Source of the DNA: an uncultured Candidatus Saccharibacteria bacterium
Lineage (GTDB): Bacteria > Patescibacteriota > Dojkabacteria > SC72
DNA length: 64,000 bases
Reading direction: 5' to 3'
Assembly: GCA_964560525.1 (NCBI GenBank)
Contig: CAZLLO010000001.1
Span: forward strand, 6,656 to 70,655
Shown here: positions 1-58,082 of the stretch, piece after piece
Layout of the letters: every line of letters starts with the position of its first letter
Position numbering within the stretch: position 1 is the first letter of the stretch
Program-made: the position numbers and the translations under genes
The notes under the pieces: model-generated
The model's input: the letters and a program-made list of their open reading frames with translations, nothing else
What the model was told of the DNA's origin: nothing
Databases searched by the model: none

Positions 1-1639
1 CAAATCTCTTAAGAAGAAGCATCTTCATAAAGGTAAGCATATTTCTTTGTGAGATCTTCTCTCTTTCTGTTAACTCTCCAGTGTAATAAAGGAGTGGGAC
101 ATACCTACTATATTTAAAGTTCTCAATGAAAGAAATTGTCTTATTAAAGGCTTCATCCTCTTTAGAGTCAAACTGGTAAAAAATAGAATTGGGATCATGC
201 ACCTTTGGAAATTTAAGACCTTGTTTCTTTAAATCTTCACTGTAGTATTTCTCAATCTCTGTTCTAGTTCTCCTAACCATTAAATATTTCAAGATATTGT
301 TTCGAATGTCTTGTGCATTTTCCTTTACAATACTCATGTATTCATCATAGTTGTTTTTTCTGTCCAATTTTCTGATTCTAGAATTCAAACTACTAAAGTA
401 AGCTTCCAGATTCTGGACTCCTGGGATGTTACTTTTCCTACTATTTTGGAATAGTTTTATTTGTGCAAGTAAGTCTTTTGGCTGGTTATTAAATGGTGTA
501 GCACTAACTAAGATTACCTTCTTACTTCTACATATCTCTGATAGTCTTTCAAAAGATATTGTTGCTTCATTTCTAAAGTTGTGAGACTCATCAATAACAA
601 TGTTATCGTACTTATCTATCCCTCTTTCTAATATCCTTTCTAACATACCTACAGACTCACATTCATAACCTCTAACACCAAATTCCATCAACACATTGGC
701 CCATGAACCCGGGTTGTCCTTTGAGATTAGTGCAGGAGAGGCAATAACCAAGGTCTTCCCCCCAAGCGTATTGATTAACCTTGCAGCAATATATGTTTTC
801 CCTAAACCAACAACGTCCGATATAAACACTCCACCATACTCCTCTACAATCTTCTTAGCATTTACTACTGCCTGCTTCTGATACTCAAGCTCTAGATATC
901 CTTCAGGTGTGTAATCTTCTATTTCTGTATCTGCAGTAAGGTCTTCCTTAAAATACTCATACAGGAATTTAAGATATAACTGATATGGTGTAATCTCATT
1001 ATTAAGATGGGTTTTTTCACTTATTGTATCATTCAAATTCTGCGATATATCCATAGCTTCTTTCCAAAGTGCATTAAAATTGCCCAATGCATACTCGTAG
1101 TCCTTACTATTTTTTAACTCAACATTGAATTCCAAGTTGTCTTTAAGTCCTGATCTAGTGAGATTACTGGAGCCAGTGATAACCCTACCTGGATCTATCT
1201 GATTCTTATCAAATGTAAAAATATATAACTTAGCATGGAGGGGAGCCTTATCGTAAATCTTTATCTGTAATTTTCCACTCTTTAACCACTCAACAAATTT
1301 AAACATACCTTCCTCGACATCGGCATCATCTTCTGCTATTGCAACCTCATCAATATACTTCTTGCTAATACTTTCTTTAATCTTTTTGGCTGACTCAAAT
1401 TGTATTTCCAGATTCCCTTGTATAGCATCTACAACTTGTGATTCAGTATTAAGTCCAATTAGAATTCTTACCTTTTCTACTTTTTCTAGACTTTTGTATA
1501 TCTGATAGAAACCACTTATGTAGAAATAGCCAACAAGTATATCTAAATTTTCTGTTCTGGGTACTAATTCATTCAATCGCTCTGAGAGGGTATTACCTTT
1601 CTCATTAGTAATAAACTCAGTAATCTGGTTTCCTGACAT
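1..1639 (-). CDS. PLD-like nuclease domain fused to SNF2/DEAD-like helicase. The N-terminal ~546 aa are in the window; the C-terminus runs off the window edge.
   Basis: Hand translation of the minus strand from the ATG at 1639 (stop codon upstream at 1652-1654) gives MSGNQITEFITNEKG.... It has a PLD HxK-x4-D-x6-GSxN motif (HAKLYIFTFD...VITGSSNLT), a Walker A (GLGKTYIAA) and motif II (DESH) typical of SNF2/SF2 helicases. It is absent from the ORF track because there is no stop codon inside the window. Confidence 0.7.
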   Translation of the reverse strand, partial: MSGNQITEFITNEKGNTLSERLNELVPRTENLDILVGYFYISGFYQIYKSLEKVEKVRILIGLNTESQVVDAIQGNLEIQFESAKKIKESISKKYIDEVAIAEDDADVEEGMFKFVEWLKSGKLQIKIYDKAPLHAKLYIFTFDKNQIDPGRVITGSSNLTRSGLKDNLEFNVELKNSKDYEYALGNFNALWKEAMDISQNLNDTISEKTHLNNEITPYQLYLKFLYEYFKEDLTADTEIEDYTPEGYLELEYQKQAVVNAKKIVEEYGGVFISDVVGLGKTYIAARLINTLGGKTLVIASPALISKDNPGSWANVLMEFGVRGYECESVGMLERILERGIDKYDNIVIDESHNFRNEATISFERLSEICRSKKVILVSATPFNNQPKDLLAQIKLFQNSRKSNIPGVQNLEAYFSSLNSRIRKLDRKNNYDEYMSIVKENAQDIRNNILKYLMVRRTRTEIEKYYSEDLKKQGLKFPKVHDPNSIFYQFDSKEDEAFNKTISFIENFKYSRYVPLLYYTGELTEREKISQRNMLTFMKMLLLKRF

Positions 1640-1746
1640 GAGTATCCTTGTTTAATTTAAATAGTAATGTTGACTACACTCTATAAAAACATCTTTATTC
1701 ATGTCATTTTACCTCCTTCTACTGTTTTTTACCACCCATATTATAT

Positions 1747-3300
1747 TTAGAACACTCTCCGGCTTCCTGGACCAAATACATTCTGCCTTGTCCAATAGTT
1801 AGGTTCGTAACTACTACTCCCATATCTAAAAAGATCCCCGACCTCTTTTGATAAGACTTGCACAGGCCTTCTATCCTCCTTTATGGCTACATGTAGTACG
1901 ATGGTAAATGCATCTACTAGGTCATCATGCTTCTCTACTCCAAAATATACTAACTGCTGTATTAATTTGTCTGCACCTTCTTTTGGAAACAATACTTTAC
2001 CCGATCTAATCATATACGTTACTGAGTCTAACCTAGCCCTCTTATCCTGTCCATTAACAGAAAAACCCTTTGCATCAAAACTACTTGTAACTAATTGCTG
2101 TATAACTGCTCTCTGATATCCAACATCTTCAATATATATCTTACATCTCCTATCAAACAACCCTGATTCTTTTGAAAGACTCTTTATTCGCTCTGTTGCA
2201 GAGGGAAAATCCAATCGTTCATTAACAGGAAACTTTTGAATATATACCTTCAGAGTCTTTTCATATCCAAATACATGCCCTACTACTAAAGCTGTATAGT
2301 CTGCATGATTACTTGAAGATATAGCTAGATCAACCCCTATTACAGAATATCTATACCCATCACTATCTACAGGCAATTCATCATAGTACTGTATCCACTC
2401 CTTGTGTACTATTTGGTCTTCATCAGCAATAATTTTAAGCATATACTCCCTTTGCCATGCTTTATCATCTCCATTCAGCTTTCTTTCAACACTTAAATCA
2501 TCAAGTGTTGGGTATCTACCTTTCCAAAGTATTTCATTCTTATCATTAATAACAGGATATTCCCTGTAAATTGTATTACTCGATTCCTTCTCAATATTCT
2601 TTCTAAGTCTCATTAGTAAAGAATCTTCATGCAAAAGATTTCCCACCATCACAATCTTAGTATTTTTCTCTCCAAGAGGAGCAATCTCCCCTGTGAACCA
2701 AGTATATGTCCTATCTCTTCCTTCTTTCGTCTTTGTAGAAGTTAAATCTTCAACATCATCACAGATAATTAAGTCTGGTCTGTATGCTCCATGCCTTAAA
2801 CCTCTAATACTCTGTTCACTTGAAGCTGCTATTATCTTTGCATTAAAGTTAGGAATTACTAAAGAGAAGGAGCCCCACTCATCTGATGTCTCCTGGAAGG
2901 GGCCTAAGTCTTTTCTAAGAAGCTCATTGTATTCCAACTCTCTCTTTATATTAGCTAGATGTATCTTAGCTTGTTGTTGTGTCTGAGAAAGAATCACTAC
3001 ACATTTCTTCTGTTGTTTTCCTATTATTGACCATATTGGATATGACATTGTCATAATGGTTGATTTAGCAGAACCCCTGAAAGCAACAATAACTGCCATC
3101 TTTAGATTCTCATCCTCTGTAATCCTAAACATTTCTCTTTGAAATGGTGCTGTTTTGTACCTGGTATATTGGCTAAAATATAGATGAAAGAATATATAAT
3201 GGCTTTCTTTAACAATCACTCTTCTTGCGACCTGATCTTCCAAAAGTTTGTTTATATCCTCGATTGTTATTTCAGTATTATTCTGTAATTGGTTGTCCAT
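1747..3300 (-). CDS. terL: Phage terminase large subunit (TerL, Terminase_6-like).
   Basis: 517 aa. P-loop FRGSAKST, Walker B LIICDDVED, C-terminal RNaseH-fold nuclease acidic residues (IGVDLA, IEDVGY, HDDLVDAF). Confidence 0.8.
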   Translation of the reverse strand: MDNQLQNNTEITIEDINKLLEDQVARRVIVKESHYIFFHLYFSQYTRYKTAPFQREMFRITEDENLKMAVIVAFRGSAKSTIMTMSYPIWSIIGKQQKKCVVILSQTQQQAKIHLANIKRELEYNELLRKDLGPFQETSDEWGSFSLVIPNFNAKIIAASSEQSIRGLRHGAYRPDLIICDDVEDLTSTKTKEGRDRTYTWFTGEIAPLGEKNTKIVMVGNLLHEDSLLMRLRKNIEKESSNTIYREYPVINDKNEILWKGRYPTLDDLSVERKLNGDDKAWQREYMLKIIADEDQIVHKEWIQYYDELPVDSDGYRYSVIGVDLAISSSNHADYTALVVGHVFGYEKTLKVYIQKFPVNERLDFPSATERIKSLSKESGLFDRRCKIYIEDVGYQRAVIQQLVTSSFDAKGFSVNGQDKRARLDSVTYMIRSGKVLFPKEGADKLIQQLVYFGVEKHDDLVDAFTIVLHVAIKEDRRPVQVLSKEVGDLFRYGSSSYEPNYWTRQNVFGPGSRRVF

Positions 3301-3685
3301 TTTCTTCCTCCTTTCTCTCTTCTGAGAATGCCATACTAAGAGATTTACGAATTAGTTCCTTTTGCTCATCCGTTAGAGGGAGATCCTTGTTAGTTGTAGT
3401 TACTTCAAGTTTAGGAGAGTAGTTCTTATGGTGATTCTTTAACCAGAATATTATTCCAGTTAAGTTTCCATCCCTTATGGCAGAGATCAATTGACTCTCT
3501 GCCATATCATTAATTAACTGAGCCCCTTCTTGTAGTGCAATCTCAGCATCTTCTGCAAACTTAGGATCTCTTTTCTTCCATCTATAGAATGTTGCTCTTG
3601 ATACTCCCATCTTTTCGCAAGTTACCTGTATGATTGGTGTTTTCTTAAGCTGTTCTACAATTGCTTTCTTATTTATTGTTTTCAT
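3278..3685 (-). CDS. Small HTH protein in the terminase-small-subunit position.
   Basis: 135 aa. HTH signature VSRATFYRWKK. Lies immediately upstream of terL and overlaps it by 23 nt. Confidence 0.5.
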   Translation of the reverse strand: MKTINKKAIVEQLKKTPIIQVTCEKMGVSRATFYRWKKRDPKFAEDAEIALQEGAQLINDMAESQLISAIRDGNLTGIIFWLKNHHKNYSPKLEVTTTNKDLPLTDEQKELIRKSLSMAFSEERKEEENGQPITE

Positions 3686-5010
3686 TGTATTTTCTTTGCA
3701 CTTAATTTAGTTAGGTTTTCCCATCTATTCCTAATTACCTCTGCATAAACAGGAGATTTTTCCATTAAATAGCATCTTCTTTTCATCTTCTCACAAGCAA
3801 TTAATGTAGATCCGCTTCCGCCAAACGGTTCTACTACTAAATCATTTCTTTTTGTAAGGACTTTGACATAAGGAATGAGTATTTCTAACGGTTTTGTCCC
3901 AAAGATTATCCCCTGTCCAGAGCTTTTCTCATCAGAAGCTTTGTATTCTATGAAGTCAGTTGGCTGTATTTTCTTCCCTTTCTCATATCCTTCCCAATGG
4001 GGCTTCCCAGATATGGCATACAAAGCTGTCTGGTACTCATTCTGAAGCAATTCTTCCTCGGGAGGAGTATTCATGACTTCCTCTTTGTATGAGGAACCAA
4101 CCATTGCTATATCGTGTTTAGAAAAGAATTTGTATTTAGCAGAAAATCCTTGGTGTCTATTTGGTATATGCCAAACAATCATGTTTTTTACCTTCCAATA
4201 CTTCTCCATTTCTCCCCATATAGTCCTAATATTTTTCCAATTTTCATATACAATGATGTGGAAATCCTCCTTTGCTACTTCTGAAATATTTTTCATCCAT
4301 AGTTCTGTGAAGTTATCTGGTAATACATCTGTCTCAAGGTACTTTCTGTCTCTTTTGTATCCGAATCCTTCCGTTGGTTTACCGCTCTTTTTCTTCCCAT
4401 GAAGATAGTCCAAAATATACGGAGGGTCCGTATAAACCATATCTGCTTTTTCACCATTCATTAACTTGAGCATGTCTTCTTGTACTGTAGAGTCTCCACA
4501 CATCATCCTATTTTCTCCTAATTGCCATATATCTCCTTTTTGAATTTCAATCTTCTTAATGTCTAGCTTGTTAAGCTCTTTTTTGAGATCAAATACTTCT
4601 GGGCTATTATCTTCCCAATCAAAGATTAGATCCAATTCCTCTGAGTTGAAACCTGTATCTGTTAAGAATTCCTCTGCAAAGCCAGCGAGAAGTTTAAAGT
4701 CGAATTCTCCTTGATTTTTGTTTAATCTAAGGTTTAATTCCTTCTCCTTCTCAATATCTGGAATATTTACATATACAACAGGCATTTCTTTTATACCTAA
4801 GGCTTTCGCTGCCTCTATACGCATATGTCCACCAATGACAATGTTCTGTCTACTAGGAGCATTGTTAACTATTGCTGGATCTACAATACCAAATCTTTGG
4901 ATACTGGTTTTGAGATCATTTAAAGCTTTTTCATCCCATTTCCTTGGGTTGTAGTCAGCTTTGACTAAGGCGTCTATTTGAACATAGACTGTTTGAAGTT
5001 TGTTCTTCAT
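3682..5010 (-). CDS. ParB-like nuclease domain fused to a beta-class DNA methyltransferase (N6-adenine or N4-cytosine).
   Basis: N-terminal ParBc-like block GGHMRIEAAKALG. Motif IV DPPY lies upstream of motif I EPFGGSGST, which is the beta-class order. ATGA start/stop overlap with the upstream gene. Confidence 0.75.
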   Translation of the reverse strand: MKNKLQTVYVQIDALVKADYNPRKWDEKALNDLKTSIQRFGIVDPAIVNNAPSRQNIVIGGHMRIEAAKALGIKEMPVVYVNIPDIEKEKELNLRLNKNQGEFDFKLLAGFAEEFLTDTGFNSEELDLIFDWEDNSPEVFDLKKELNKLDIKKIEIQKGDIWQLGENRMMCGDSTVQEDMLKLMNGEKADMVYTDPPYILDYLHGKKKSGKPTEGFGYKRDRKYLETDVLPDNFTELWMKNISEVAKEDFHIIVYENWKNIRTIWGEMEKYWKVKNMIVWHIPNRHQGFSAKYKFFSKHDIAMVGSSYKEEVMNTPPEEELLQNEYQTALYAISGKPHWEGYEKGKKIQPTDFIEYKASDEKSSGQGIIFGTKPLEILIPYVKVLTKRNDLVVEPFGGSGSTLIACEKMKRRCYLMEKSPVYAEVIRNRWENLTKLSAKKIQ

Positions 5011-5105
5011 AACTTAAATAGTAAAAATTTAGATATATATGCTTAAATAATGGTTATTCAAGCTATATCTAAATGATAAAACAATGATAGTTGTGTAAAG
5101 TTGGG

Positions 5106-5846
5106 TTACTTTCTTAAGAAGGATATATATGCAGGATTAACAGTGAACATTGTGTTGTTAGATATAAAGAAATCCTTGTATCCAATACCTTCTTCAATAG
5201 TATGGTTTAAGGCCCTATATTTCTCATACACTATGTGATACCAATCCTTACTTGCATCCGAGTAGTCTTCACCAATAGCTTTTACTAAATCTTCTAACTC
5301 CCAAGGCATCTTTTTACGACGCTTACCGCCGAACATAAACTTACACAAATCATACCTAGGAGTTCCCTTTTTTAATGCTAACGGGAAGCCATTTATCACT
5401 AAACGTGGTTTTTCTTCTTCAAAAACAACATTATTTGTTTCTAGGAACATGAATTGAGGTTTATTCTTTATTACTACTTTAATTGCTTCTGCAACTTCTT
5501 TTGTCACTTTAAATGATATTGTCTTAAATTTTGTAGCACCTTCCTGTATTGTATAAATCGTGTATATATCTTCTTCTGTAAGTGTACCCTCTTTTAAACC
5601 TTTCCTTATTTCTTTAGGAGAGATAGAAATCCTTAGGTTTAAGAAAAATTCATAGGTATCTGAGCTTAGGTAGATGGTTTTTTCAAAGAATTTTGCTATA
5701 CCCGAGGTAACTTCCAACATCTTATTGATAACCTTCTGTATAGGTTTCATCGTTTTATTAATAATCTCTATCTGTTGTTGGAAACTTCCAGAAGCTATCT
5801 CTATACTTTTCACTATATCTGCGATATCACCCATTTGTAGCAACAC
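5106..5846 (-). CDS. Hypothetical protein.
   Basis: 246-aa ORF in the same orientation and block as the phage-like genes. No motif recognised. Confidence 0.4.
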   Translation of the reverse strand: MLLQMGDIADIVKSIEIASGSFQQQIEIINKTMKPIQKVINKMLEVTSGIAKFFEKTIYLSSDTYEFFLNLRISISPKEIRKGLKEGTLTEEDIYTIYTIQEGATKFKTISFKVTKEVAEAIKVVIKNKPQFMFLETNNVVFEEEKPRLVINGFPLALKKGTPRYDLCKFMFGGKRRKKMPWELEDLVKAIGEDYSDASKDWYHIVYEKYRALNHTIEEGIGYKDFFISNNTMFTVNPAYISFLRK

Positions 5847-5962: not shown

Positions 5963-7558
5963 CTAGTCTACACCATTTTTCTTATCAAGGACTTTTTTTA
6001 TCTTTTCAATATCTCTGGCCACGATTGGTTCAAATACGTCTAAAATTGCCAATAAACTACTAACATTATTAATATTGCTAACCCGTGCCATCTCTAAATT
6101 CGAAAGTGCTTCTTTATTTTCGGGGTAGTGCTTATTTATAGCGTTGATCCTCAATTTCCTACTAAAGGTATAATTCCCTGGATGATTGGCATCCACTACA
6201 CCATATAAAAAATGAATTATCTTACTAGAGAGATACTGACATCTCTCAGTCAAGTCTTCTGGTCCTTTTTCCACAGTATCATCTTCACACCACTTTCTAA
6301 TCTCTTGCATCTCGGAAACTAAATCTTTATTTAGTAAATAAGTTAATTCTGATCCAGACTGAGGAAATTCCTCGTGTGGAAGCATCTTCCCATACAAAAG
6401 TATTCCATCAAAGGTACATATAAATCTATCCTTCTTATACTCTTCTCCTAAAAAGTCCGATATATTTATAACTTTCACATCATTTTTGATCTCCCGAAGG
6501 AGTTTAGCACTCTCTTTATCAATTTCTTTTGCCCCTTTTTCAAGTATTATATAGATATTAGTGTCTGAAACACCTTCCTCATGCTCCCCTCTAGCAAGAC
6601 TCCCAAGAAGATAGATAGATCGCAAATCATTGCCATAACGGCACTTACAAAGCTCTATCATGTCATTAATCCAATTCTTATGTGTAGCATCAATAGCATC
6701 AAAGTTTGTAAGATTAACTATTTTTAAAGTATTGGAAAATTGCAAATATTCGTTTATAACCTTCTTATCACCCTCCCCAACTAATGGATACCCTAGTTCG
6801 TTAATAAATAAAAGGGCTATGTCGTCAATATTTTTATATATTTCATCAAAGGTCTTTTCCAGTTGCTTTTGTGACACCGTTGAAAAATCTTCCAATGTCT
6901 TATCTCTCTTTTCTTGTAAAAGTTTTTCTCCTTCAGTTGTTAAAACTCCAGACATGCTTAATACAATCCGAAGTCCTTTAATTTCATTAAAATCTTGATT
7001 CTGATGAAGAGTACTCAAAAAATGATGATACCCCGTACGTTTTCTGAGACAAACTTGAATTCCAGACTGTCCAGAATGGTCATCTGCATCCCATTTTGAC
7101 ATTAGATCTTCCAGCTTCTTAGACTTAATAGCACTCAAATATTTCTTTAATTTTTGATCACTTGATCGAACCTTTTTCTTCAGATCCTCAATAGTAAATT
7201 CTTCTGAACTATCAATATCATTCTCCAAAAGATAGCTCATCTTAATCAATTTATCTTTGAGTTGATGTACTAAATCTAAAAAGTACCCTTGATAAAATAT
7301 TATTATATCCTCTTTACTCAAACCCTCAGCTTTTAAAAAAGACTCATCGTACTCATACTTCATAAGAGACCTTACTCTTTTAAGGTCTACCAGGACTCTT
7401 TTCACCTCATTCGCGTAGTCGAATCTTGATTGCAAGTAGCCTGTTGTAGCAGAGTCACAGTTTATAGCCAAACAATGAGGCTCACTAAGCTTCTGCTTAA
7501 AAACATCAATTAGAAGCCTGGTACACAAGTTATTTAGATTTGATTTTTCTATATCCAT
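5963..7558 (-). CDS. Large protein with a Pol-beta-superfamily nucleotidyltransferase (MNT-like) core.
   Basis: 531 aa. GS-x11-D motif LLGSLARGEHEEGVSDTN near residue 318. The second carboxylate is replaced by N, so the domain may be inactive. Rx5-6H patches (RKRTGYHH, RINAINKH) could be HEPN-like. The N-terminal 300 aa are unassigned. Confidence 0.45.
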   Translation of the reverse strand: MDIEKSNLNNLCTRLLIDVFKQKLSEPHCLAINCDSATTGYLQSRFDYANEVKRVLVDLKRVRSLMKYEYDESFLKAEGLSKEDIIIFYQGYFLDLVHQLKDKLIKMSYLLENDIDSSEEFTIEDLKKKVRSSDQKLKKYLSAIKSKKLEDLMSKWDADDHSGQSGIQVCLRKRTGYHHFLSTLHQNQDFNEIKGLRIVLSMSGVLTTEGEKLLQEKRDKTLEDFSTVSQKQLEKTFDEIYKNIDDIALLFINELGYPLVGEGDKKVINEYLQFSNTLKIVNLTNFDAIDATHKNWINDMIELCKCRYGNDLRSIYLLGSLARGEHEEGVSDTNIYIILEKGAKEIDKESAKLLREIKNDVKVINISDFLGEEYKKDRFICTFDGILLYGKMLPHEEFPQSGSELTYLLNKDLVSEMQEIRKWCEDDTVEKGPEDLTERCQYLSSKIIHFLYGVVDANHPGNYTFSRKLRINAINKHYPENKEALSNLEMARVSNINNVSSLLAILDVFEPIVARDIEKIKKVLDKKNGVD

Positions 7559-7604: not shown

Positions 7605-8012
7605 TTGATATCATCTAGTCGGGGAAATGGGGTCCAGACCCATATGTCCCGTATTATTTCTCTGCTCCATATTCTAAGGCTAAATACCTGGTCAACAGAA
7701 ATCTCAAAAGAAATTCATGTTTTACAGGATGATATCGTGATAACAAAGAACAGAGTAAGTGCTTTTTGTAATACCAATTTAGATTCCATATTAAAATTAA
7801 AAGAAAATGATATTGAAGATATTATGATTGCGGGTATTGCAACCGAGTTAGCAGTTTCAAGTACAGTTCGAGATGCGCATGATTTGGATTATGATGTTAC
7901 TGTAATTGAAGACTGTTGTGCTTCTGCAGATATTTCTAATCATAATGCTACGATGAAGATATTACAGAAGATAGCAAAGATAGAGAATTCTGCTACGGTA
8001 TTTGAAAAATAA
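7605..8012 (+). pseudogene. 5'-truncated isochorismatase/cysteine-hydrolase family gene (C-terminal ~105 aa only).
   Basis: DDIVITKNRVSAF...IMIAGIATELAVSSTVRDAHDLDYDVTVIEDCCAS matches the C-terminal half of the isochorismatase-like fold. The apparent N-terminus of the ORF is translated from repeat R1 (7633-7674), so the true 5' part is missing. Confidence 0.6.
7633..7674 (+). repeat. Repeat family copy R1 (TCCAGACCCATATGTCCCGTATTATTTCTCT...CCATATT).
   Basis: Direct repeat shared with 8036, 9535 and 10323. Contains 3 CCRTAT sub-motifs about 10-22 bp apart. Confidence 0.7.
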
Positions 8013-8035
8013 AGACATATAGATTCCAGACCCAT

Positions 8036-8072
8036 ATGTTCCATATTGCTCCTCATATTAGTTTCGCTACCC
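8036..8072 (+). repeat. Repeat family copy R2.
   Basis: TCCAGACCCATATGTTCCATATTGCTCCTCATATT. Lies immediately after the isochorismatase fragment stop. Confidence 0.7.
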
Positions 8073-9534: not shown

Positions 9535-9580
9535 TCCAGACCCATATGTTCCGTATTATTTCTCTTTTCCCCCGTATTGT
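9535..9580 (+). repeat. Repeat family copy R4.
   Basis: TCCAGACCCATATGTTCCGTATTATTTCTCTTTTCCCCCGTATTGT. Confidence 0.7.
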
Positions 9581-10322: not shown

Positions 10323-10357
10323 TCCAGACCTGTATGTCCCGTATTCATTATCTCCTC
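10323..10357 (+). repeat. Repeat family copy R5.
   Basis: TCCAGACCTGTATGTCCCGTATTCATTATCTCCTC. Sits between the convergent HAD and ABC-permease genes. Confidence 0.65.
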
Positions 10358-29575: not shown

Positions 29576-32107
29576 CTAAGATTCCAAATTTAATTTCTCT
29601 AACAATTCTTTCTGTTTCTGTTGTAATCTTGCATTAAAAATAATGTGGTAATCAAAGTTAGGGTTTTGTTTTTGGAAATCTCTGAATCCTAATTCTTTCG
29701 CAAATACCTCATTTGTGATTCTTCTATCTCCTTTTTCGTAATCTTCTTTGTTTCTTGAGTAGTCAATCTTTTTATCATCTTCTTTAACTTCAATAACAAT
29801 AAATCTTCCTTTACTCGTCTCTATTAAGAAATCTGGGAAATACCTACTGATCTTTTCTTTCGAGGGATTCCAATATTCGAAGAAAAAATCTGTATGGACA
29901 GAGTCTGTTACGTTTCCTGTAAAATATAAATCTATAACTACCTCATCAGGACTTAATATTTCTCTTAGATACAAAAATAATTCTTTTTCGTCTGTTGTGT
30001 CAAAAGAATATGGGTTTATATGAAATCCTAATCTCCCATTCTCTAAATCTTCCTGATAAACTACAAGGCTTTCTCTATTTTTATCTCGACTTAATTTAAA
30101 TGGGAAATTCTTTGTTAATTCAAGTTCCTCCTCTACAATCGTCCTCTCCTCTTCATATTTATATAACTGGCTCGTAATATCATTCGCAATACTGTTTGTA
30201 ACATATGTAGAATTTCTATTTGTTAAACAATCGCAATTATCAATATTGTTAGCTTTAAATATCTCTTCAACATCTAAGCAAGGTACATGGGTTTTCAAAG
30301 ATAAATTTGCTACAAAGTGTATATATGATTGTTGAGATTCTTCCCACTTAATATCAACTTCTTTTCGTTTATTTATAAAAGCTGTATGAGAGTCTTCATT
30401 CAATTTAATACCACCTTCCTTTTTAATTCCTTCCACAGAAGATTTTATGTACTCGCCCAAAGGTTTTAGCTTTATATCCTCTAGCTTCTTGTTTTCTATG
30501 TTTTTTATTTCGGTTAAGATTTTCTTTACCTTTATCTTTCTTGTTTTTAATACATTCAATGCTAAATCCAACTTTTCAACATTCTGTTGTTCTAAATCTG
30601 CCCTTGTTACAGAGAAATTCCTTTGCAATTCTTTATCTAATATCAAAGCATTTTCATCTGATAAGAATATAGTTGCAAAAGTAGAATTATCTCCAATAGA
30701 TCGCATACATCTTGTAGATGCCTGAAGAACAAAAATAGCGCTTGTAGGCTTCCTGTAAAGGGCGGTAGCCACCAAGGAACGAACATTCCATCCTTCAGTA
30801 CCTTTTCCTACTAAAAGTATAAATTGCTTTTTACTTTCATCCGTGTCCAGTTTCAAAAATTCATCCCTACTTTCTTCTTTCTCTGTATGGTATTCTAATA
30901 TACTTTCTAAAGGGATACCTTTTTTAGAAAGTATTTTTTCCAACAAAGGTCTCAGATTCTGCTGCAGATCTTCAATGCTACTAGAATAAAAAGCTATCTT
31001 GGGAAGTTTTCCTTCTAATTTTAGTCCTTGGTAACGATTTGTAAAGACATTTACAACCTCTGAAACGAAATCATCTGATTTAACATTCTCATATTCAACA
31101 AAATTAACTCGTTTCAAGATACCCTCCTCAATACCTTGTTTTAAACCAAAATAATATACAACATCACTAATAAGTTTGTTATTCACATATGGAGTACCCG
31201 TAAAATTCACCACATTTACCAAAGGAGTCTGGGCTTCTTCATTTAAGAATTTTATCGTTTGTCTTGTCTTCTTAAGTGTATTATCAAGATTAGTTCCATA
31301 AGAATGGTGCGCTTCATCAACAAAGATGGCTAAATTAGAAAGTCCTTTTATAGCATCCCTTCTATAATTAGCATGGAATTGCTTCTCTCTATCCGCTTCA
31401 TTTAAAAGAATCTGCCCAGACTTCAAAGTATTATTTTTTTTCTTTAATATAATTTTTTGAGAGTTTGAAACAATAACATTATAGTTTCCAATAAAATTAA
31501 CAGGTGTTTCTGTGCTCTCTAAATAGTGATATTTGATATTCAAGACAATGTTTTCATATTCTTTTGGAACAACAGTTCTATAATCAAAGGATTTTATTTC
31601 CTTTAAACTCTCAATTATTGTTGTATCAGGAGCAAAAACAAGAATGTTTTTAGCAAATCTTGAATCGGGATATCGAGAAGACAGTATAAACTCATACATT
31701 ATCATTGTACCCATTAACAGAGTCTTGCCAGAACCCATTGTAAGAGCATATACCTGATTAGGATAGGCGAATTGTCCATATTCTTTCTCTACCAACTTCT
31801 TGATCTTGGTTTCTTTTTCAGGATCATAGGCTAAATTTAGAACCTCTTCGTTTGATAACGAGAAACTAGAAATTAAATCTCTTTCAGACTCATAAAGATT
31901 AGGAATTATTTCTGCAGTTGTTTTATTTCCCAATATCTCTTTGAGATATACATAAGTTTCAAAGGCTTCTTTTTGCGGAGTATAAAGATAGTTGATTTTG
32001 TATATATGCTTTAATATGTTTCTTGTTTCTTTTGTAACACCAGGATAATCAGCTAATTTCCAAGATTCTACTTTTATTTTTAATTTTTCGAAGAGGAGAC
32101 TATTCAT
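29576..32107 (-). CDS. res: Type III restriction enzyme Res subunit (SF2 helicase plus C-terminal PD-(D/E)xK endonuclease).
   Basis: Walker A MGSGKTLLMG, motif II FVDEAHHS, C-terminal PDFLIET...IVIEVK. Overlaps mod by 8 nt. Confidence 0.8.
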   Translation of the reverse strand: MNSLLFEKLKIKVESWKLADYPGVTKETRNILKHIYKINYLYTPQKEAFETYVYLKEILGNKTTAEIIPNLYESERDLISSFSLSNEEVLNLAYDPEKETKIKKLVEKEYGQFAYPNQVYALTMGSGKTLLMGTMIMYEFILSSRYPDSRFAKNILVFAPDTTIIESLKEIKSFDYRTVVPKEYENIVLNIKYHYLESTETPVNFIGNYNVIVSNSQKIILKKKNNTLKSGQILLNEADREKQFHANYRRDAIKGLSNLAIFVDEAHHSYGTNLDNTLKKTRQTIKFLNEEAQTPLVNVVNFTGTPYVNNKLISDVVYYFGLKQGIEEGILKRVNFVEYENVKSDDFVSEVVNVFTNRYQGLKLEGKLPKIAFYSSSIEDLQQNLRPLLEKILSKKGIPLESILEYHTEKEESRDEFLKLDTDESKKQFILLVGKGTEGWNVRSLVATALYRKPTSAIFVLQASTRCMRSIGDNSTFATIFLSDENALILDKELQRNFSVTRADLEQQNVEKLDLALNVLKTRKIKVKKILTEIKNIENKKLEDIKLKPLGEYIKSSVEGIKKEGGIKLNEDSHTAFINKRKEVDIKWEESQQSYIHFVANLSLKTHVPCLDVEEIFKANNIDNCDCLTNRNSTYVTNSIANDITSQLYKYEEERTIVEEELELTKNFPFKLSRDKNRESLVVYQEDLENGRLGFHINPYSFDTTDEKELFLYLREILSPDEVVIDLYFTGNVTDSVHTDFFFEYWNPSKEKISRYFPDFLIETSKGRFIVIEVKEDDKKIDYSRNKEDYEKGDRRITNEVFAKELGFRDFQKQNPNFDYHIIFNARLQQKQKELLEKLNLES

Positions 32108-33923
32108 TTTTCTTAAGGTTTATTTCAAATGTTTCAAAATACTCTTCTCCTAAGACATCAATTATCTTCACCGCAACTATATTCTTCTCATTACTCTTAT
32201 TTTCATATTCATATTTAGCAGATATCAAATTCTTTCTATCTGGTAAATCCATAATTTCAGCATTGAACAATTTCCCATTGTAATTAGTATCAATACATAC
32301 ACTGTCAATGATTTGTTTAAAATCTTCCACATACACATTTTCCTTGGAATCAAGCTGCTTTTCATTCTCAAGTTCCAACTTCTTTATGAGAATAGGAGAA
32401 TGAAAATCTCTGATTTCAATAAGAACCTTTTTATCACTAGCTTTTACTTCTACCTTTGCTTCTGGTAGTTGTTTAAATATGAGATTTTTATTATCAGCCT
32501 GGATATCTTTAACTTCAACTTTTACACCTGTTTTGTTTTCTTTCCTCAGATACTCTAAAGCATCTAGTTCTACTCCAGAGGCAATAATTATGACTTCTTG
32601 TTCATAAATTTCCTCCTCCTGAGAAGATGTCGTTTTTCCAGTAAACTGATCTATACCCTTTTCTATTTCTCTTATAACATTCTCGATATCTAACTTGTTA
32701 AGCACTCTATTTAGGGGCATTACCTTTACAAGGTTATCATCGAGTACTCCATCAAAATAACTTTGTTTAATTGGTTCTACACCATATATATCCATTATTA
32801 TTTCTTTTGACTCAATTTCATTCTTAAAAATATCATAGTCATTTACATTGTAAACTTTAAAAGATCTTAAGCCTTTGTATTCTTCTACTAGTTTCTGTTG
32901 TTTTTGATCCTCGATTATTTGATTTAATCTTTTCGTTGTAGTTTGTATAGCTCCAAGATTAATATCACATCCTATCCACCTTCTTCCCAATTCCTGTGCT
33001 ACTGCTAGAGTCGTACCACTTCCACAGAAACAATCCAAAACTAAATCACCAGGGTTAGAGGAAGCTTTAACAATTCTTTCAAGTAAAGTCACAGGCTTTT
33101 GTGTTGGATAAGAAGTTCTTTCCGTTTCATCTCTTTGTGAAATAATTCCCATATCCCAAACATCATCAGCATTTTTCAAATCATCTACATAATATGTATA
33201 TACCTTACCATTCGCTCTTACCTCTTGATATCTTTTCCCTTCTTTATCTGTTTTAAAATAACCACTAAAGCTACCCTCATCCGTATTTCTTTTTACACCC
33301 GCTTCGTGTCCATTATAATTCCACTCCTCACCTTTCCTGTACCATAAAATAGTATCATGTTTCCTATTAAACCAAGTATTACTTCGCCCTCCACCATTTT
33401 TGTAATACCATATAATTTCATTCAAAATATTCTTCTCTCCAAATATTTCATCTAACACTAATCTTAATTGAGCAACTTTCCTATAATCCAAATGTACAAA
33501 AATTGTGCCATTTTCTGCAAGAAGTTCTTTCAGTATGATTAATCTTTCATACATAAATTGTAAGTATTCATCATTTGCCCATATATCGGAATATTGCTTT
33601 TCCTCTAGCAAACTTCCTTGAGTACCTTCAACATTCAAACCTCTTAATTTAACTTTTTTTATGTAATCTGCGCTGCTATCAAAAGGGGGATCTATATATA
33701 TCAGGTCTATTTTCCCCCGATACATCTTAAGTAAATGAGATAACACCTGCAAATTGTCTCCCCAAAATAACTTGTTAAACTCTTTTGTATTAAAATCACC
33801 ATAAACTTCTTTCTCTTGTGCAGGAAAATATTCAACAGATTCTAAAGGTTTTTTGCCAATCCAATGAAGCATAGGCCTTCCCTTAATAGGAGATATCGTT
33901 TGAATATCATTCTGTTTGGACAT
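32100..33923 (-). CDS. mod: Type III Mod DNA methyltransferase (beta-class N6-adenine methyltransferase).
   Basis: Motif IV IYIDPPFDS lies before motif I DCFCGSGTT. 607 aa. Confidence 0.8.
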   Translation of the reverse strand: MSKQNDIQTISPIKGRPMLHWIGKKPLESVEYFPAQEKEVYGDFNTKEFNKLFWGDNLQVLSHLLKMYRGKIDLIYIDPPFDSSADYIKKVKLRGLNVEGTQGSLLEEKQYSDIWANDEYLQFMYERLIILKELLAENGTIFVHLDYRKVAQLRLVLDEIFGEKNILNEIIWYYKNGGGRSNTWFNRKHDTILWYRKGEEWNYNGHEAGVKRNTDEGSFSGYFKTDKEGKRYQEVRANGKVYTYYVDDLKNADDVWDMGIISQRDETERTSYPTQKPVTLLERIVKASSNPGDLVLDCFCGSGTTLAVAQELGRRWIGCDINLGAIQTTTKRLNQIIEDQKQQKLVEEYKGLRSFKVYNVNDYDIFKNEIESKEIIMDIYGVEPIKQSYFDGVLDDNLVKVMPLNRVLNKLDIENVIREIEKGIDQFTGKTTSSQEEEIYEQEVIIIASGVELDALEYLRKENKTGVKVEVKDIQADNKNLIFKQLPEAKVEVKASDKKVLIEIRDFHSPILIKKLELENEKQLDSKENVYVEDFKQIIDSVCIDTNYNGKLFNAEIMDLPDRKNLISAKYEYENKSNEKNIVAVKIIDVLGEEYFETFEINLKKNE

Positions 33924-45205: not shown

Positions 45206-46834
45206 ATGAAGAACTTTAAACCCGAAAATTACAAAATTGAATTAAAAGAAATATTTTCCTTAATCAAGGCTTCAACCAATTGGAGAACAGATACATTACA
45301 AACCATATTAAAGAAATATCCAAAGGATGGGAACAAACTCTTTAGACATGATGAATTAGTAAATGGATACGAATATCTTGGATCAAAGGACAAGACAGTG
45401 GAAGAAAGAATTAGATTAAAACCTACCAGAACTAACTCAGGTGTAGCTACAGTTACAGTACTCTCTAAACCCTACCCTTGCCCTGGTAGATGTATATTCT
45501 GTCCTAATGACCCAAATATGCCCAAGAGCTATATATCCTCCGAACCGGGGGCACAGAGAGCTCTAAGCAATTGCTTTGATCCATATGCTCAGGTATACAA
45601 CAGATTAATTGCTTTAAAGAATATTGGACATAATATTGAGAAAGTAGAATTACTTGTATTAGGGGGTTCTTGGTCTGCATATCAAGAGGAATACAAGGTA
45701 TCATTTGTTAAAGCTTGTTTTGATGCTATGAATGATATACAGAAAGATACTCAAGGATATATACAACCTAGAACCGAATTACCATTGGCCACTGTGAATG
45801 AATTGTTTGAAGCGCAACATATCAATGAGAGTGCATATTGTAGGAATGTTGGGTTGGTGTTTGAAACTAGGCCAGATTTAATCACCGAGGAAGAAGTTGT
45901 TAATCTTCGAAAGCTTGGTGCTACTAAGATACAGATTGGTATTCAATCTTTAGATGACAAGATTATTGATGCTAACCATATTGGTAGACCTACGAAAGAT
46001 GTTAAGAACGCAATTAAATTACTTAGACTTGGTGGTTTCAAGATTCATGGGCATTGGATGCCTAATTTGTATATGTCTAATGTTAAGAGGGATATTAATG
46101 ATTACAAGAAGCTTTGGAAGAAGGATTTCTGTCCTGATGAATTAAAGATATATCCTACTTCCATTGTTCCTAATACTTTGCTTTTTAAATTGTATGAGGA
46201 GGGTAAGTTCAAGCCATATACCGAGGATGAGTTGTTAATGGTTTTGTCTGAGACTATGCCTACTACTCCTAGGTATTGTAGATTATCCAGAATTATTAGG
46301 GATATTCCTTCTGAAGAGATTGTAGCTGGGAACAAGAAAACCAATCTTAGACAGATTGCTGAGGAGTTGATTGAGAAGAAGGGGAAAAGGATGAATGACA
46401 TTAGGAGTAGAGAGATAAAGAATGAGAGGGTTAGTTGGGAAGATTTGGTATTGGAGATTATTAGGTATGATACTTCTACTGGGAAGGAGTTTTTTCTTTC
46501 TTACAAGACTAAGGATACGGATAGGATTTGTGGATTTTTGAGGTTGTCTATACCAGAGAAAAAATACAGAAAAGAAAATTTCATTGAGGAGTTACGTGAT
46601 TCTTCTATAATTAGAGAGGTTCATGTGTATGGTAGGGTTATGAGTTTGGATATTGATAGTTCTGGAGAATCTCAACATTTGGGATTGGGCAAAAAGCTTA
46701 TTGAGATGGCTGAGGAGATTACTAAAAAGGAGGGGATACATAGGATAGTGGTTATTTCTGCTATTGGGACTAGAGAATATTACAAGAAGAGAGGATTTGA
46801 AATGGGGAGATTGTATATGGAGAAGGAGATATGA
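45206..46834 (+). CDS. elp3: Elp3-family radical SAM / GNAT acetyltransferase (tRNA wobble-uridine modification).
   Basis: PCPGRCIFCPND radical-SAM cluster. C-terminal GNAT region. 542 aa. Confidence 0.75.
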   Translation: MKNFKPENYKIELKEIFSLIKASTNWRTDTLQTILKKYPKDGNKLFRHDELVNGYEYLGSKDKTVEERIRLKPTRTNSGVATVTVLSKPYPCPGRCIFCPNDPNMPKSYISSEPGAQRALSNCFDPYAQVYNRLIALKNIGHNIEKVELLVLGGSWSAYQEEYKVSFVKACFDAMNDIQKDTQGYIQPRTELPLATVNELFEAQHINESAYCRNVGLVFETRPDLITEEEVVNLRKLGATKIQIGIQSLDDKIIDANHIGRPTKDVKNAIKLLRLGGFKIHGHWMPNLYMSNVKRDINDYKKLWKKDFCPDELKIYPTSIVPNTLLFKLYEEGKFKPYTEDELLMVLSETMPTTPRYCRLSRIIRDIPSEEIVAGNKKTNLRQIAEELIEKKGKRMNDIRSREIKNERVSWEDLVLEIIRYDTSTGKEFFLSYKTKDTDRICGFLRLSIPEKKYRKENFIEELRDSSIIREVHVYGRVMSLDIDSSGESQHLGLGKKLIEMAEEITKKEGIHRIVVISAIGTREYYKKRGFEMGRLYMEKEI

Positions 46835-55163: not shown

Positions 55164-58082
55164 TTAGCCATACTTAGGATAGCAACATTTTTTGTATTTT
55201 TTCCCACTACCACAAGGACAAGGGTCATTTCGACCAACTTTTTTGTTCTTCTGTATAGTTTTTTGCTTAGCAATTTTACCTGGTCTTTTGTCTTCTTCTT
55301 GGTTCGTATTCATAGCTGCTTGCTCTATTCTTGGAGCTAATCTGACTCTAAAGAATCTAGTAACTACAGATTCGTCTATCTTTTTTAACATATCATCAAA
55401 CATTTGGAATCCCTCATTTTTGTACTCTACTAAAGGATCTCTTTGAGCTAGATTTCTTAAAGAAATACCCTCTCGAAGATCTGTCATCGTATCTAGGTGC
55501 TCCATCCAGAATCTGTCATATGCTTCAAGAATGAGCATTCTAGCAAGTGCTTTCATTGGCTCCACCCCGATTGCATACATATGAATAATCATAGAAAGAA
55601 GAATCAACTGTTTTACCTCTTTCAATTTCTCAACATTACTCATACCTTCTAACTTTCTGAAGAACTCTGCTTCATTCTTGTGTCCCAATTCTTTGACAGC
55701 CATTCCGAAGAGCTCTTCTGTTAGTAAGTTCTTTATCTGAATATATAGCTTTCTCTCTTCAACATTGTCTATCTCCTTGTCATCTTGTAATTCAGATGCA
55801 AAAAGGAAATCCACATATTCTAATTCTTTCTTAAGTATCCACTTCTCAAGAGGAGAATATATATATTTGAAATCTTCTAACTCAGAAATATTCCAGCTTT
55901 CTTCTTTAGTAAAGGAGAAACCATCCAAACTATCTTGCAGATTATCAATATCTGTTGCCTTAGCTTTTTCGATATCATTCTTTAGAGAAGTTTTAGAGAT
56001 TTCAAACTTCGGAGTTGTATCAGCTTGAAGAAGTTTTCGTCTGAGAGTATATATTATTTCCCTTTGTTGATTTAATACATCATCATATTCAACAAGGTTT
56101 TTACGAATATCATAGTTGTATGCTTCTACTTTTTTCTGAGCATTTTCTATGGTCTTCCCTAATATCCCAATTTCAATAGGTGTTTCATCATCTAGTCCTA
56201 CCTGAGTCATTAGCATTTGCATTCTATCTCCTCCAAAGAGTCGCATTAGTTCGTCCTCAAAAGAAACATAGAATCTAGATTCTCCTGGGTCTCCTTGTCT
56301 TCCAGATCTTCCTCTTAACTGGTTGTCAATTCTTCTTGATTCATGTCTTTCAGAACCAATGACATACAAACCACCTAAGTCAGTTACTCCTTCTCCTAGT
56401 GCAATATCTGTACCTCTACCTGCCATATTAGTAGCGATAGTTACAGCACCTTTTTGTCCTGCTTCAGATATAACATGAGCTTCTCTTTCATGTTGTTTAG
56501 CGTTCAATACGTTGTGTTTGATTCCATCTTTCAGAAGCATATCTGATATTCTTTCGGATTTCTCCACTGAAGTAGTACCAACCAATACTGGTTGACCATT
56601 TTCATGGTGTGTTTTGATATCTTCCACTATGGCCCTGAACTTGCCATCCTCGCTCCTGTAGACTAGATCTACATGATCTTTCCTAACTACTTGCCTATTT
56701 GTAGGTACAACGATGGTATCAAGCTTGTAAATTGATGAGAACTCTTCTGCTTCTGTTAAAGCTGTAGCTGTCATTCCAGAGAGATACTTGTAAAGCCTAA
56801 AGAAGTTTTGCAAAGTAATTGTAGCCATTGTCTTAGATTCTCGTTTAACTTCGACACCTTCTTTTGCTTCTATTGCTTGATGTAGTCCCTCACTATATCT
56901 CCTTCCCTCCATTGCTCTTCCTGTAAATTCATCAACGATGAGGATTTCACCATTCCTAATCATGTATTCGTCATCAAGTTTGTACAACTCTTTTGCCTTC
57001 AATGCATTATCCAAATGATATGCTAACTGTGCATTTTCATAGACATTTTTTACACCCAAGAGCTTTTCGGTATAGTCAATTCCTTCATCTGTTAAAGAAA
57101 CAGAATGGGACTTTTCATCTACAACATAGTGTTTTTCGTTTTGTAGCTGGTTAGCTACTGTAGCAAACTGTTTGTACAAAGTATTGGCGGTTTGAGCGTT
57201 GGTAGAAATAATCAAAGGAGTACGAGCTTCATCAATTAAAATTGAGTCAGCCTCATCTACGATTACAAAATATTTAGGACCTTGAACTCTCTCTTCAAGG
57301 GTTCTCGCCATATTGTCTCTAAGGTAATCAAATCCAAATTCATTGTTAGTACCATATACCACATCACATGCATAAACTTCCTGTTTGCTACATTCAATCA
57401 TATTAACTCCAGACATATGATCATACTTTAGTCGTCCATTTGCTTTAGCTTTTTCATCTCTTTCTTTAAGAAGTGCTTTCCCTTCATCTCCTTTTAACTT
57501 AAGTACTTCGTCATCTGTTATGAATTTGTACTGTTTACCTGAGTTAATGGCTCCAACTGTGATACCAAGAGCATTTAAGATATGGCCATTCCATTCTGCA
57601 TCTCTTCTTGCAAGATAGTCATTTACAGTTACTAAGTGTGCACCTCTCCCTGTTAAACCATACAAATAAAGTGGAAGATTAGCTGCTAATGTTTTTCCTT
57701 CTCCTGTAAAGAGTTCTGCAATCTTGTTATCAAACAAAACATATCCAGCCATCATTTGAACATCAAAATGTCTGTGGTTTGCAACTCTTTTTGAAGCTTC
57801 CCTTACAACGGCAAATGCCTCTGGAAGGATGTCATACAACTTCTTCTTCTCTTCTTCGAGTTTAACTCTTAATTCTTCTGTTTTTAGTGTTTCAAATTCC
57901 TTTCTAGCTGTTTCTAAGTCTACATTTAGTATCTTTCTAAATGATGCTGTTTTCTTTCTTAATTCTTCATCTGAAAGTTTTCCAAAGTCCTCTTCAAAGG
58001 AGTTTATTTTCTCTATTATGGGTTGGATTTTGTTTAATTGTTTTTCGTTAGAATCGAAAAGGTTTGCAAAAAATTTCAACAT
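55164..58082 (-). CDS. secA: Preprotein translocase ATPase SecA.
   Basis: 972 aa. DEAD-like motor motifs. C-terminal zinc finger CPCGSGKKYKKCC. Confidence 0.9.
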   Translation of the reverse strand: MLKFFANLFDSNEKQLNKIQPIIEKINSFEEDFGKLSDEELRKKTASFRKILNVDLETARKEFETLKTEELRVKLEEEKKKLYDILPEAFAVVREASKRVANHRHFDVQMMAGYVLFDNKIAELFTGEGKTLAANLPLYLYGLTGRGAHLVTVNDYLARRDAEWNGHILNALGITVGAINSGKQYKFITDDEVLKLKGDEGKALLKERDEKAKANGRLKYDHMSGVNMIECSKQEVYACDVVYGTNNEFGFDYLRDNMARTLEERVQGPKYFVIVDEADSILIDEARTPLIISTNAQTANTLYKQFATVANQLQNEKHYVVDEKSHSVSLTDEGIDYTEKLLGVKNVYENAQLAYHLDNALKAKELYKLDDEYMIRNGEILIVDEFTGRAMEGRRYSEGLHQAIEAKEGVEVKRESKTMATITLQNFFRLYKYLSGMTATALTEAEEFSSIYKLDTIVVPTNRQVVRKDHVDLVYRSEDGKFRAIVEDIKTHHENGQPVLVGTTSVEKSERISDMLLKDGIKHNVLNAKQHEREAHVISEAGQKGAVTIATNMAGRGTDIALGEGVTDLGGLYVIGSERHESRRIDNQLRGRSGRQGDPGESRFYVSFEDELMRLFGGDRMQMLMTQVGLDDETPIEIGILGKTIENAQKKVEAYNYDIRKNLVEYDDVLNQQREIIYTLRRKLLQADTTPKFEISKTSLKNDIEKAKATDIDNLQDSLDGFSFTKEESWNISELEDFKYIYSPLEKWILKKELEYVDFLFASELQDDKEIDNVEERKLYIQIKNLLTEELFGMAVKELGHKNEAEFFRKLEGMSNVEKLKEVKQLILLSMIIHMYAIGVEPMKALARMLILEAYDRFWMEHLDTMTDLREGISLRNLAQRDPLVEYKNEGFQMFDDMLKKIDESVVTRFFRVRLAPRIEQAAMNTNQEEDKRPGKIAKQKTIQKNKKVGRNDPCPCGSGKKYKKCCYPKYG

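Follow-up and report, generated by a model that had tools for sequence, protein, structure and literature searches.

A rare protein family, mostly of Patescibacteria, predicted to fuse an undescribed helical domain to an altered nucleotidyltransferase

What is the role of a gene that stands beside terminase-like genes and encodes a nucleotidyltransferase (NTase) joined to a long helical domain matching no known family? The question is raised by a 531-residue protein encoded in a 64,000-nucleotide stretch of DNA from an uncultured Candidatus Saccharibacteria bacterium (the window; assembly GCA_964560525.1, contig CAZLLO010000001.1, positions 6,656 to 70,655), which an earlier note had singled out as a possible fused HEPN-MNT-like protein. 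Our analysis suggests that this target protein is a single-chain conflict module of the toxin or abortive-infection type, in which a HEPN-like effector would be regulated by a catalytically altered NTase, and we assign this reading a probability of about 0.35. As judged from sequence, the family combines a previously undescribed helical domain and a family-wide altered NTase in one chain.

The open reading frame (ORF) described in the earlier note is genuine, although its correct strand is the minus strand. It is complete at 5963-7558, encoding 531 residues and ending in a stop codon at 5963-5965, whereas the plus-strand translation of the same interval contains dozens of stops and was rejected. 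The protein is an exact copy of an entry in the public protein collection (P0001), and its closest homologue (P0002, locus L003) is 81% identical. In a codon-level comparison with this homologue, the ratio of nonsynonymous to synonymous substitution rates (dN/dS) was 0.077, with synonymous sites near saturation, which indicates a functional coding gene under purifying selection. The target is a real, well-conserved bacterial protein. A word-indexed search of 5.8 billion proteins returned ten full-length relatives, and about 57 came from a profile search across 1.84 billion cluster representatives, these being 505-555 residues long and at about 25-30% identity; the residue counts given below refer to these 57. 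The same profile search also recovered a separate class of proteins of ~250-300 residues that match residues ~275-520 only. When genomes were scanned with a 10-sequence alignment, 17 of 23 loci belonged to the candidate phyla radiation (CPR)/Patescibacteria, and the rest to Bdellovibrionales, Gamma- and Deltaproteobacteria and one planctomycete. The family is rare and found mostly in CPR/Patescibacteria.

Searches of the whole protein with Pfam, PADLOC, NCBIfam and PHROGs recognized the NTase core only and left residues 1-300 unmatched. It is this N-terminal region that holds the strongest constraint. Residues 1-112 are the most constrained part of the protein (95% identity to the L003 homologue, dN/dS = 0.033), and the long helix formed by residues 82-112 carries H98 (55/57), Q99 (54/57), K101 (56/57), D102 (51/57, with Glu in four more) and K103 (55/57). 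The domain also has a conserved face made of D/E51 (56/57), R54 (54/57) and E58 (51/57), and W156 is kept in 56/57. The insert at residues 113-165 has the lowest conservation (70% identity to the L003 homologue, dN/dS = 0.125), and its residues 116-136 are modeled with a predicted local distance difference test (pLDDT) score below 50. Beyond the insert lies an Rx4H motif, R174-T-x-[H/Y]-H-H179, in which R174 and H179 are present in all 57 relatives and T175 and H178 in 48 each.

In HEPN domains, an Rx4-6H motif spans the end of core helix 3 and the beginning of the loop that leads to helix 4, helices 2 and 3 are often separated by an insert, and helix 2 bears a conserved acidic residue (PMC3710099). 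R174 and H179 conform to the Rx4-6H pattern; the residue following the arginine is Thr (48/57), which is polar but is not the typical Asn, Asp or His. AlphaFold2 (AF2) predicted the isolated N-terminal domain as an all-helical bundle with a predicted template modeling (pTM) score of 0.75. In both AF2 models, the helix at 166-175/176 is closed by R174, and H178 and H179 open the next loop, a placement that would fit the HEPN description, although pLDDT is below 50 in the motif loop. The insert precedes the Rx4H helix and D102 sits in the helix before the insert.

Several results weigh against counting this domain among the HEPN families. Profile-profile comparison by hhalign, which covered one HEPN family (DUF86/HepT), gave the N-terminal domain a probability of 0.6%, as compared with 0.8% for a reversed-column control, and the C-terminal domain likewise gave nothing above its reversed control. 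The DUF86/HepT profile was built from 120 genuine PF01934 proteins retrieved via a hand-written DUF86-like bait and was of low diversity (Neff 3.7). Descent from HepT/DUF86 finds no support in this comparison. A Pfam scan of the 57 members detected HEPN_Cthe2314 in only two, with a best E-value of 0.056. Searches of PDB sequences with the whole protein and with the N-terminal-domain profile returned noise only (ferritin, FEN-1, EgtD). In addition, the AMP-accepting tyrosine of HepT (RX4HXY, two residues after the histidine) is absent from the 57 relatives, in which residue 181 is Val, Arg, Lys, Leu or Ile and the residue one after the histidine is an unconserved Phe, Tyr or Arg. The earlier note had likened RKRTGYHH to a HEPN motif, and the strict conservation of Rx4H sustains its choice of site, while membership in HEPN is unproven. 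HEPN offers the best analogy at hand for the possible mode of action of the domain, and "HEPN-MNT fusion" is therefore used here as a working analogy and not as a classification. On that analogy, the N-terminal domain is probably a HEPN-type Arg/His nuclease.

It is also conceivable, though unlikely, that the protein is a non-toxic regulator or sensor, made up of a nucleotide-binding pseudo-NTase and a helical domain that would bind, but not cleave, a partner protein or nucleic acid. Such a protein would resemble the inactive HEPN regulators (MtlR) or the pseudo-NTases (NF45/NF90, MiD51). The N-terminal fold is indeed indistinguishable from generic protein-binding bundles (alpha-catenin, vinculin tail, FAT, Rsd), and the altered NTase site would suit this role, as would the stand-alone N-terminal-domain genes that occur without an evident antitoxin (L030 10004-10843, 279 residues; P0056, L032/L033 4761-5699, 312 residues). 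These genes have an intact Rx4H, and no NTase gene is adjacent to them; a search for a split two-gene version of the target, which covered these genes and the downstream side of one stand-alone NTase (P0099), found none. However, catalytic or phosphate-binding sites typically have what is seen here, an invariant Arg/His pair with a neighboring helix that bears conserved His, Gln, Lys, Asp and Lys. A regulator would also have no conserved partner gene to act on, and the patchy occurrence on islands is more in line with a conflict system than with a housekeeping regulator.

The NTase domain has the Pol-beta fold that the earlier note proposed, with an alpha-beta-alpha-beta-alpha-beta core whose hG[GS] loop connects the first helix with the second strand. 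The Pfam NTP_transf_2 match is marginal (21.8 bits against a threshold of 21, residues 309-364), the PADLOC candidate MNT model PDC-S09 matches at 6.6e-7, and the NCBIfam scores fall far under their cut-offs (MntA, 14.8 versus 60 bits; ANT(4')-Ib, 15.7 versus 500; ANT(4')-I, 12.2 versus 350). The metal- and nucleotide-binding motif GSLARGEHEEGVSDTN reads GS-x11-D-x-N. Comparing the full-length relatives with the stand-alone NTases, it becomes clear that most of this motif is shared: G319 is kept in 56/57 and 36/37, S320 in 54/57 and 34/37, R323 in 54/57 and 24/37, S331 in 55/57 and 36/37 and D332 in 52/57 and 35/37, respectively. Position 334, in contrast, is Asn in 51 and Asp in 2 of the 57 full-length proteins, whereas it is Asp in 35 of the 37 stand-alone ones of ~265 residues. 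Fused and stand-alone relatives differ by a clean Asp-to-Asn switch that can be tested at the level of the family. The core had been called degenerate, which is accurate for the Asn at the second catalytic carboxylate; it is not a decayed MNT, however, because DxN is selected as a family character.

The motif departs from the two-carboxylate signature of active Pol-beta NTases, hG[GS]x9-13Dh[DE]h, and no Asp or Glu is conserved in the third strand (residues 359-365), where position 360 is Asp in 17, Asn in 12 and Ser in 10 relatives. A conserved aspartate does occur at the start of the fourth strand (D384, 54/57), within a family-specific block KKDRFICTFDGILLYG that also contains R378 (52/57), F379 (51/57), C381 (49/57), G385 (55/57) and G390 (57/57). 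Among these, C381, D384 and G385 are unconserved in the stand-alone DxD relatives. We infer that two-metal transfer of the canonical kind is gone or considerably altered, with the nucleotide-binding loop still in place. The alternative is that DxN is still catalytic, with Asn binding one Mg2+ and the N-terminal domain serving in substrate binding or targeting. The Arg/His pair would then bind a phosphate-bearing substrate (RNA, nucleotide or protein), and a cellular or invader target would be modified, as by MenT/AbiEii-type toxins or AMPylators. We consider this doubtful, given the near-exclusive split between Asn and Asp at position 334, the lack of a conserved third-strand carboxylate and the strongest constraint being in the N-terminal domain and not in the NTase. 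Furthermore, AMP transfer by MntA is abolished even when DxD is conservatively changed to ExE (PMC7641770).

Residues ~283-531 are an NTase of the AadA/KNTase type together with its usual C-terminal helical domain. The two-domain (NTase plus helical) fold is that of ANT(3'')(9)/AadA, with 9-10% identity to those structures. The earlier note had looked for HEPN in the C-terminal sequence as well, a suggestion that does not hold, as the last 130 residues are the non-catalytic helical domain usually found behind NTases of the AadA/KNTase type. Its second patch, RINAINKH, has the arginine in 19 of the 57 relatives, the histidine in one and both in one, and shuffled sequences of the same composition contain 1.4 Rx4-6H patterns by chance; the patch is therefore noise.

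The distribution of the family speaks to the placement of the gene inside a phage block. TerL-like and TerS-like genes do adjoin the target, but the family is not phage-borne: tblastn detected no member in 50,697 phage records or 72,556 plasmids, none of 2.9 million IMG/VR contigs encoded a relative, and the BFVD viral structures contained matches to the NTase domain only, none with the full architecture. An anti-defense factor, as the earlier note had allowed, or a superinfection-exclusion factor, encoded by a prophage in the window, is very unlikely because of this absence. The proximity of the ParB-methyltransferase gene and the presence of the 81% homologue within a related island in L003 would be in keeping with such a factor, yet the block has no portal, capsid or tail genes and runs into a PLD-SNF2 gene, and most homologues are on CPR chromosomes in non-phage contexts. 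The conflict-type character proposed for the gene fares better. It behaves as an accessory gene that is solitary, patchily distributed, sometimes fragmented and located by restriction-modification and mobile-element genes. Its immediate neighbors elsewhere include an HsdM/S fusion, N6/N4 methyltransferases (one of them LexA/S24-fused), NERD nucleases, large serine recombinases and a TraG/TrwB coupling protein, and no neighbor is conserved across 24 loci beyond the local synteny of close Saccharibacteria relatives. Decayed copies are found at L028 (9971-11543, frameshifted and split into 387 and 151 residues) and at L031 (9959-10354, a 131-residue remnant). A HepT/MntA pair was sought in the fetched loci and none was found. 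Taken together, the evidence favors a solitary, horizontally mobile conflict gene with the N-terminal domain as its functional core.

A Hailong-like guard, in which an oligonucleotide made by the NTase keeps the fused effector off until a phage nuclease removes it, is highly improbable: Hailong is a two-gene operon whose HalB is an active poly-dA synthase dependent on an intact NTase site and whose HalA is a separate transmembrane channel, whereas the target has DxN and a helical bundle that is soluble, with neither a membrane protein resembling HalA nor a conserved neighbor beside it, and ANT-type enzymes outscore HalB.

As a single-chain conflict module, the target would be carried on mobile or defense islands as a self-contained polypeptide. 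The N-terminal domain may act as the effector, a HEPN-like metal-independent endoribonuclease with R174/H179 as its candidate site, and like other HEPN enzymes it would need dimerization to complete the active site. The NTase module would no longer AMPylate the toxin as MntA does, since the acceptor tyrosine of HepT is also absent. It might instead be a built-in regulator, either by sterically blocking productive dimerization or by holding a bound nucleotide, the effector being released when the ligand changes in infection or stress.

The type VII toxin-antitoxin system HepT/MntA shares with the target an Rx4H helical domain, a minimal Pol-beta NTase with a GS...SDx motif, carriage on mobile elements and probably the same logic of an NTase module controlling a helical effector. 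However, in the target both domains lie on a single polypeptide and the helical domain leads, whereas the two-gene pairs nearly always have the MNT gene ahead. The target's helical domain is about 280 residues with a 50-residue insert, as compared with about 115-135 residues for HepT, and its NTase is of the larger AadA-like two-domain type, unlike MntA. MntA has GSX10DXD, which is required for AMPylation (PMC7641770), where the target has GSX11DXN, and the target lacks the tyrosine that accepts AMP in HepT. Among documented proteins, the nearest precedent is FhepTA of the Shewanella prophage CP4So, an MNT-HEPN fusion in which the MNT domain intrinsically blocks HEPN dimerization (PMC13000451). 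FhepTA has 276 residues, MNT as its N-terminal and HEPN as its C-terminal domain, an active NTase motif and the acceptor tyrosine; it oligoAMPylates itself and is >90% similar to split HepT/MntA pairs (PMC13000451). Both proteins place an NTase and an Rx4H domain in a single chain on a mobile element, and the inhibition mechanism of FhepTA is the one proposed here for the target. The target differs in its reversed domain order, about twice the size (its family spans 517-555 residues in this comparison), DxN and the missing acceptor tyrosine.

The closest sequence relatives of residues ~275-520 are the uncharacterized stand-alone NTases (P0099, P0104-P0158; E-values 1e-16 to 1e-33). They share Y316, GS, S331-D332, G390, K445, Y463-T464 and P479 with the target but have neither its N-terminal domain nor its C381, D384-G385, N410 and N458 signature. 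In the one context checked, that of the DxD relative P0099, there was no called gene downstream on its strand and the upstream neighbor was on the opposite strand. The resistance enzymes ANT(3'')(9)/AadA, AAD(9) and KNTase/ANT(4') have DxD/E where the target has DxN, and the target adds a 280-residue N-terminal domain; nothing suggests a resistance function for it. HepS and RAZR, which are experimentally validated single-protein HEPN defense nucleases (PMC13434031), share the concept of a prophage or island protein in which a sensor or regulator is coupled to a HEPN RNase that is off by default and on at infection, and they show that this sensor-plus-HEPN logic is common. Their HEPN domains are recognizable by sequence (DUF4145-type in RAZR), and the partner is a zinc finger or none, not an NTase. 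Overall, the target family is a variation on the HEPN/MNT theme with an N-terminal domain that has no family assignment, and not a categorically new system.

A more far-reaching version, which we regard as improbable, would make the family a hitherto unrecognized single-protein immune or addiction system, concentrated among CPR/Patescibacteria with their reduced genomes. A new, highly divergent HEPN-type or a convergent Arg/His nuclease would be gated by a pseudo-NTase, a former AMPylating antitoxin turned nucleotide sensor, and RNA would be cleaved in response to the cell's own nucleoside triphosphate pool or to a nucleotide made by a phage. If the single-chain conflict module is correct, it would represent a third regulatory solution for the very common HEPN/MNT partnership, besides covalent AMPylation (HepT/MntA) and AMPylation combined with a dimerization block (FhepTA), with the enzyme turned into a fused regulator that is itself a pseudo-enzyme. 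The module would also introduce a new helical effector domain unrecognized by current profile libraries and a candidate one-gene system for CPR/Patescibacteria, the defense repertoire of which is poorly known. Should the model fail, the family would still be an unannotated, conserved two-module protein with an N-terminal domain that merits a Pfam entry. The features of the target and of its surroundings are collected in Table 1.

Table 1 Features of the target protein and adjacent genes, with positions in the window
Feature	Residues	Position	Strand	Remark
N-terminal all-helical domain	1-282	6713..7558	-	matches no known family
VHQLKDK helix motif	97-103 (in helix 82-112)	7250..7270	-	from conservation counts
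Variable insert	113-165	7064..7222	-	between long conserved helix and Rx4H helix; low model confidence
RKRTGYHH	172-179	7022-7045	-	
Rx4H, candidate catalytic site	174-179	7022..7039	-	invariant Arg/His
Pol-beta-type NTase domain	283-400	6359..6712	-	
GS-x11-D-x-N motif (G319 S320...S331 D332 T333 N334)	319-334	6557..6604	-	metal/nucleotide motif
Family-specific block	375-390	6389..6436	-	from conservation counts
C-terminal helical domain	401-531	5966..6358	-	AadA/KNTase-type follower; no catalytic motif
RINAINKH	470-477	6128..6151	-	not a functional motif
Orphan 246-residue ORF		5106-5846	-	no Pfam, PHROGs or PADLOC match
ParB-N6/N4 methyltransferase		3682-5010	-	
TerS-like helix-turn-helix (HTH) protein		3278-3685	-	
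TerL-like protein		1747-3300	-	
Phospholipase D (PLD)-type nuclease (PLDc_2/NgoFVII-like) + SNF2/ResIII helicase fusion		2-1651	-	runs off left edge
Isochorismatase-family fragment	135 in total	7605-8012	+	TTG start; Pfam profile positions 69-166 of 175

Downstream of the target, on the minus strand, come the orphan ORF and then the ParB-N6/N4 methyltransferase, TerS-like, TerL-like and PLD-nuclease/SNF2-helicase genes. The exact sequence of the orphan ORF (GTG start) was not in the protein collection, and blastp found no counterpart of it among the neighbors of the target homologues. The PLD-SNF2 gene occupies the place directly downstream of the TerL-like gene where a portal gene is expected, and its product has weak PADLOC matches to ZacB, ZacC, DpdE and DrmC. 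L003 carries a rearranged version of the same island, in which the TerL-like, PLD-helicase and ParB-methyltransferase genes have 71-87% nucleotide identity with different cargo between them; the L003 contig has no terminal overlap, leaving circularity unsupported. The adjacency of TerL-like and PLD/ResIII genes recurs there (2748-5183), so the two genes may form a module of their own.

On the other side of the target, the isochorismatase gene is apparently 5'-truncated, as only part of the profile is covered, and host-like genes lie to its right. The truncation coincides with the edge of the island that ends in the target and may mark an insertion boundary. The target is apparently the last gene of an inserted island and does not belong to a structural prophage module.

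A repeated element was also observed in this region. The 18-nucleotide motif TCCAGACCCATATGTYCC is the core of a partly palindromic element of ~35 nucleotides, with copies on the plus strand of the window at 7633-7650, 8025-8042, 9535-9552 and 10323-10340 and in L003 at ~6614-6637 and ~1089-1126. The four window copies, where 0.02 would be expected, share one orientation and are intergenic, lying between single genes to the right of the target. The first is 75 nucleotides upstream of the target start codon, and the L003 homologue is also preceded by a copy. The element could be a repetitive extragenic palindromic (REP)-like sequence, a terminator, an operator or a cassette boundary.

Among the homologues, P0004 (L004-L007, for example L004 7219-9910) is divergent to a gene for a 480-residue fusion of a LexA DNA-binding domain, an S24 peptidase and an N6_N4 methyltransferase, beside which are an HTH gene and a 342-residue ORF without a family match. 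This neighborhood, with its unusual SOS-linked methyltransferase architecture, was recovered in all four listed contigs, which come from different samples. Elsewhere in the window, a restriction-modification pair at 29576-33923 on the minus strand comprises an 843-residue ResIII-type helicase/endonuclease that weakly matches the BPTD_3080 restriction endonuclease family and overlaps a 607-residue N6/N4 DNA methyltransferase. The organism is a low-GC bacterium. The host part of the window includes a bacterial Elp3-type radical-SAM/GNAT tRNA-modification enzyme (45206-46834, plus strand; TIGR01211, 484 bits), and SecA at 55164-58082 confirms the bacterial host.
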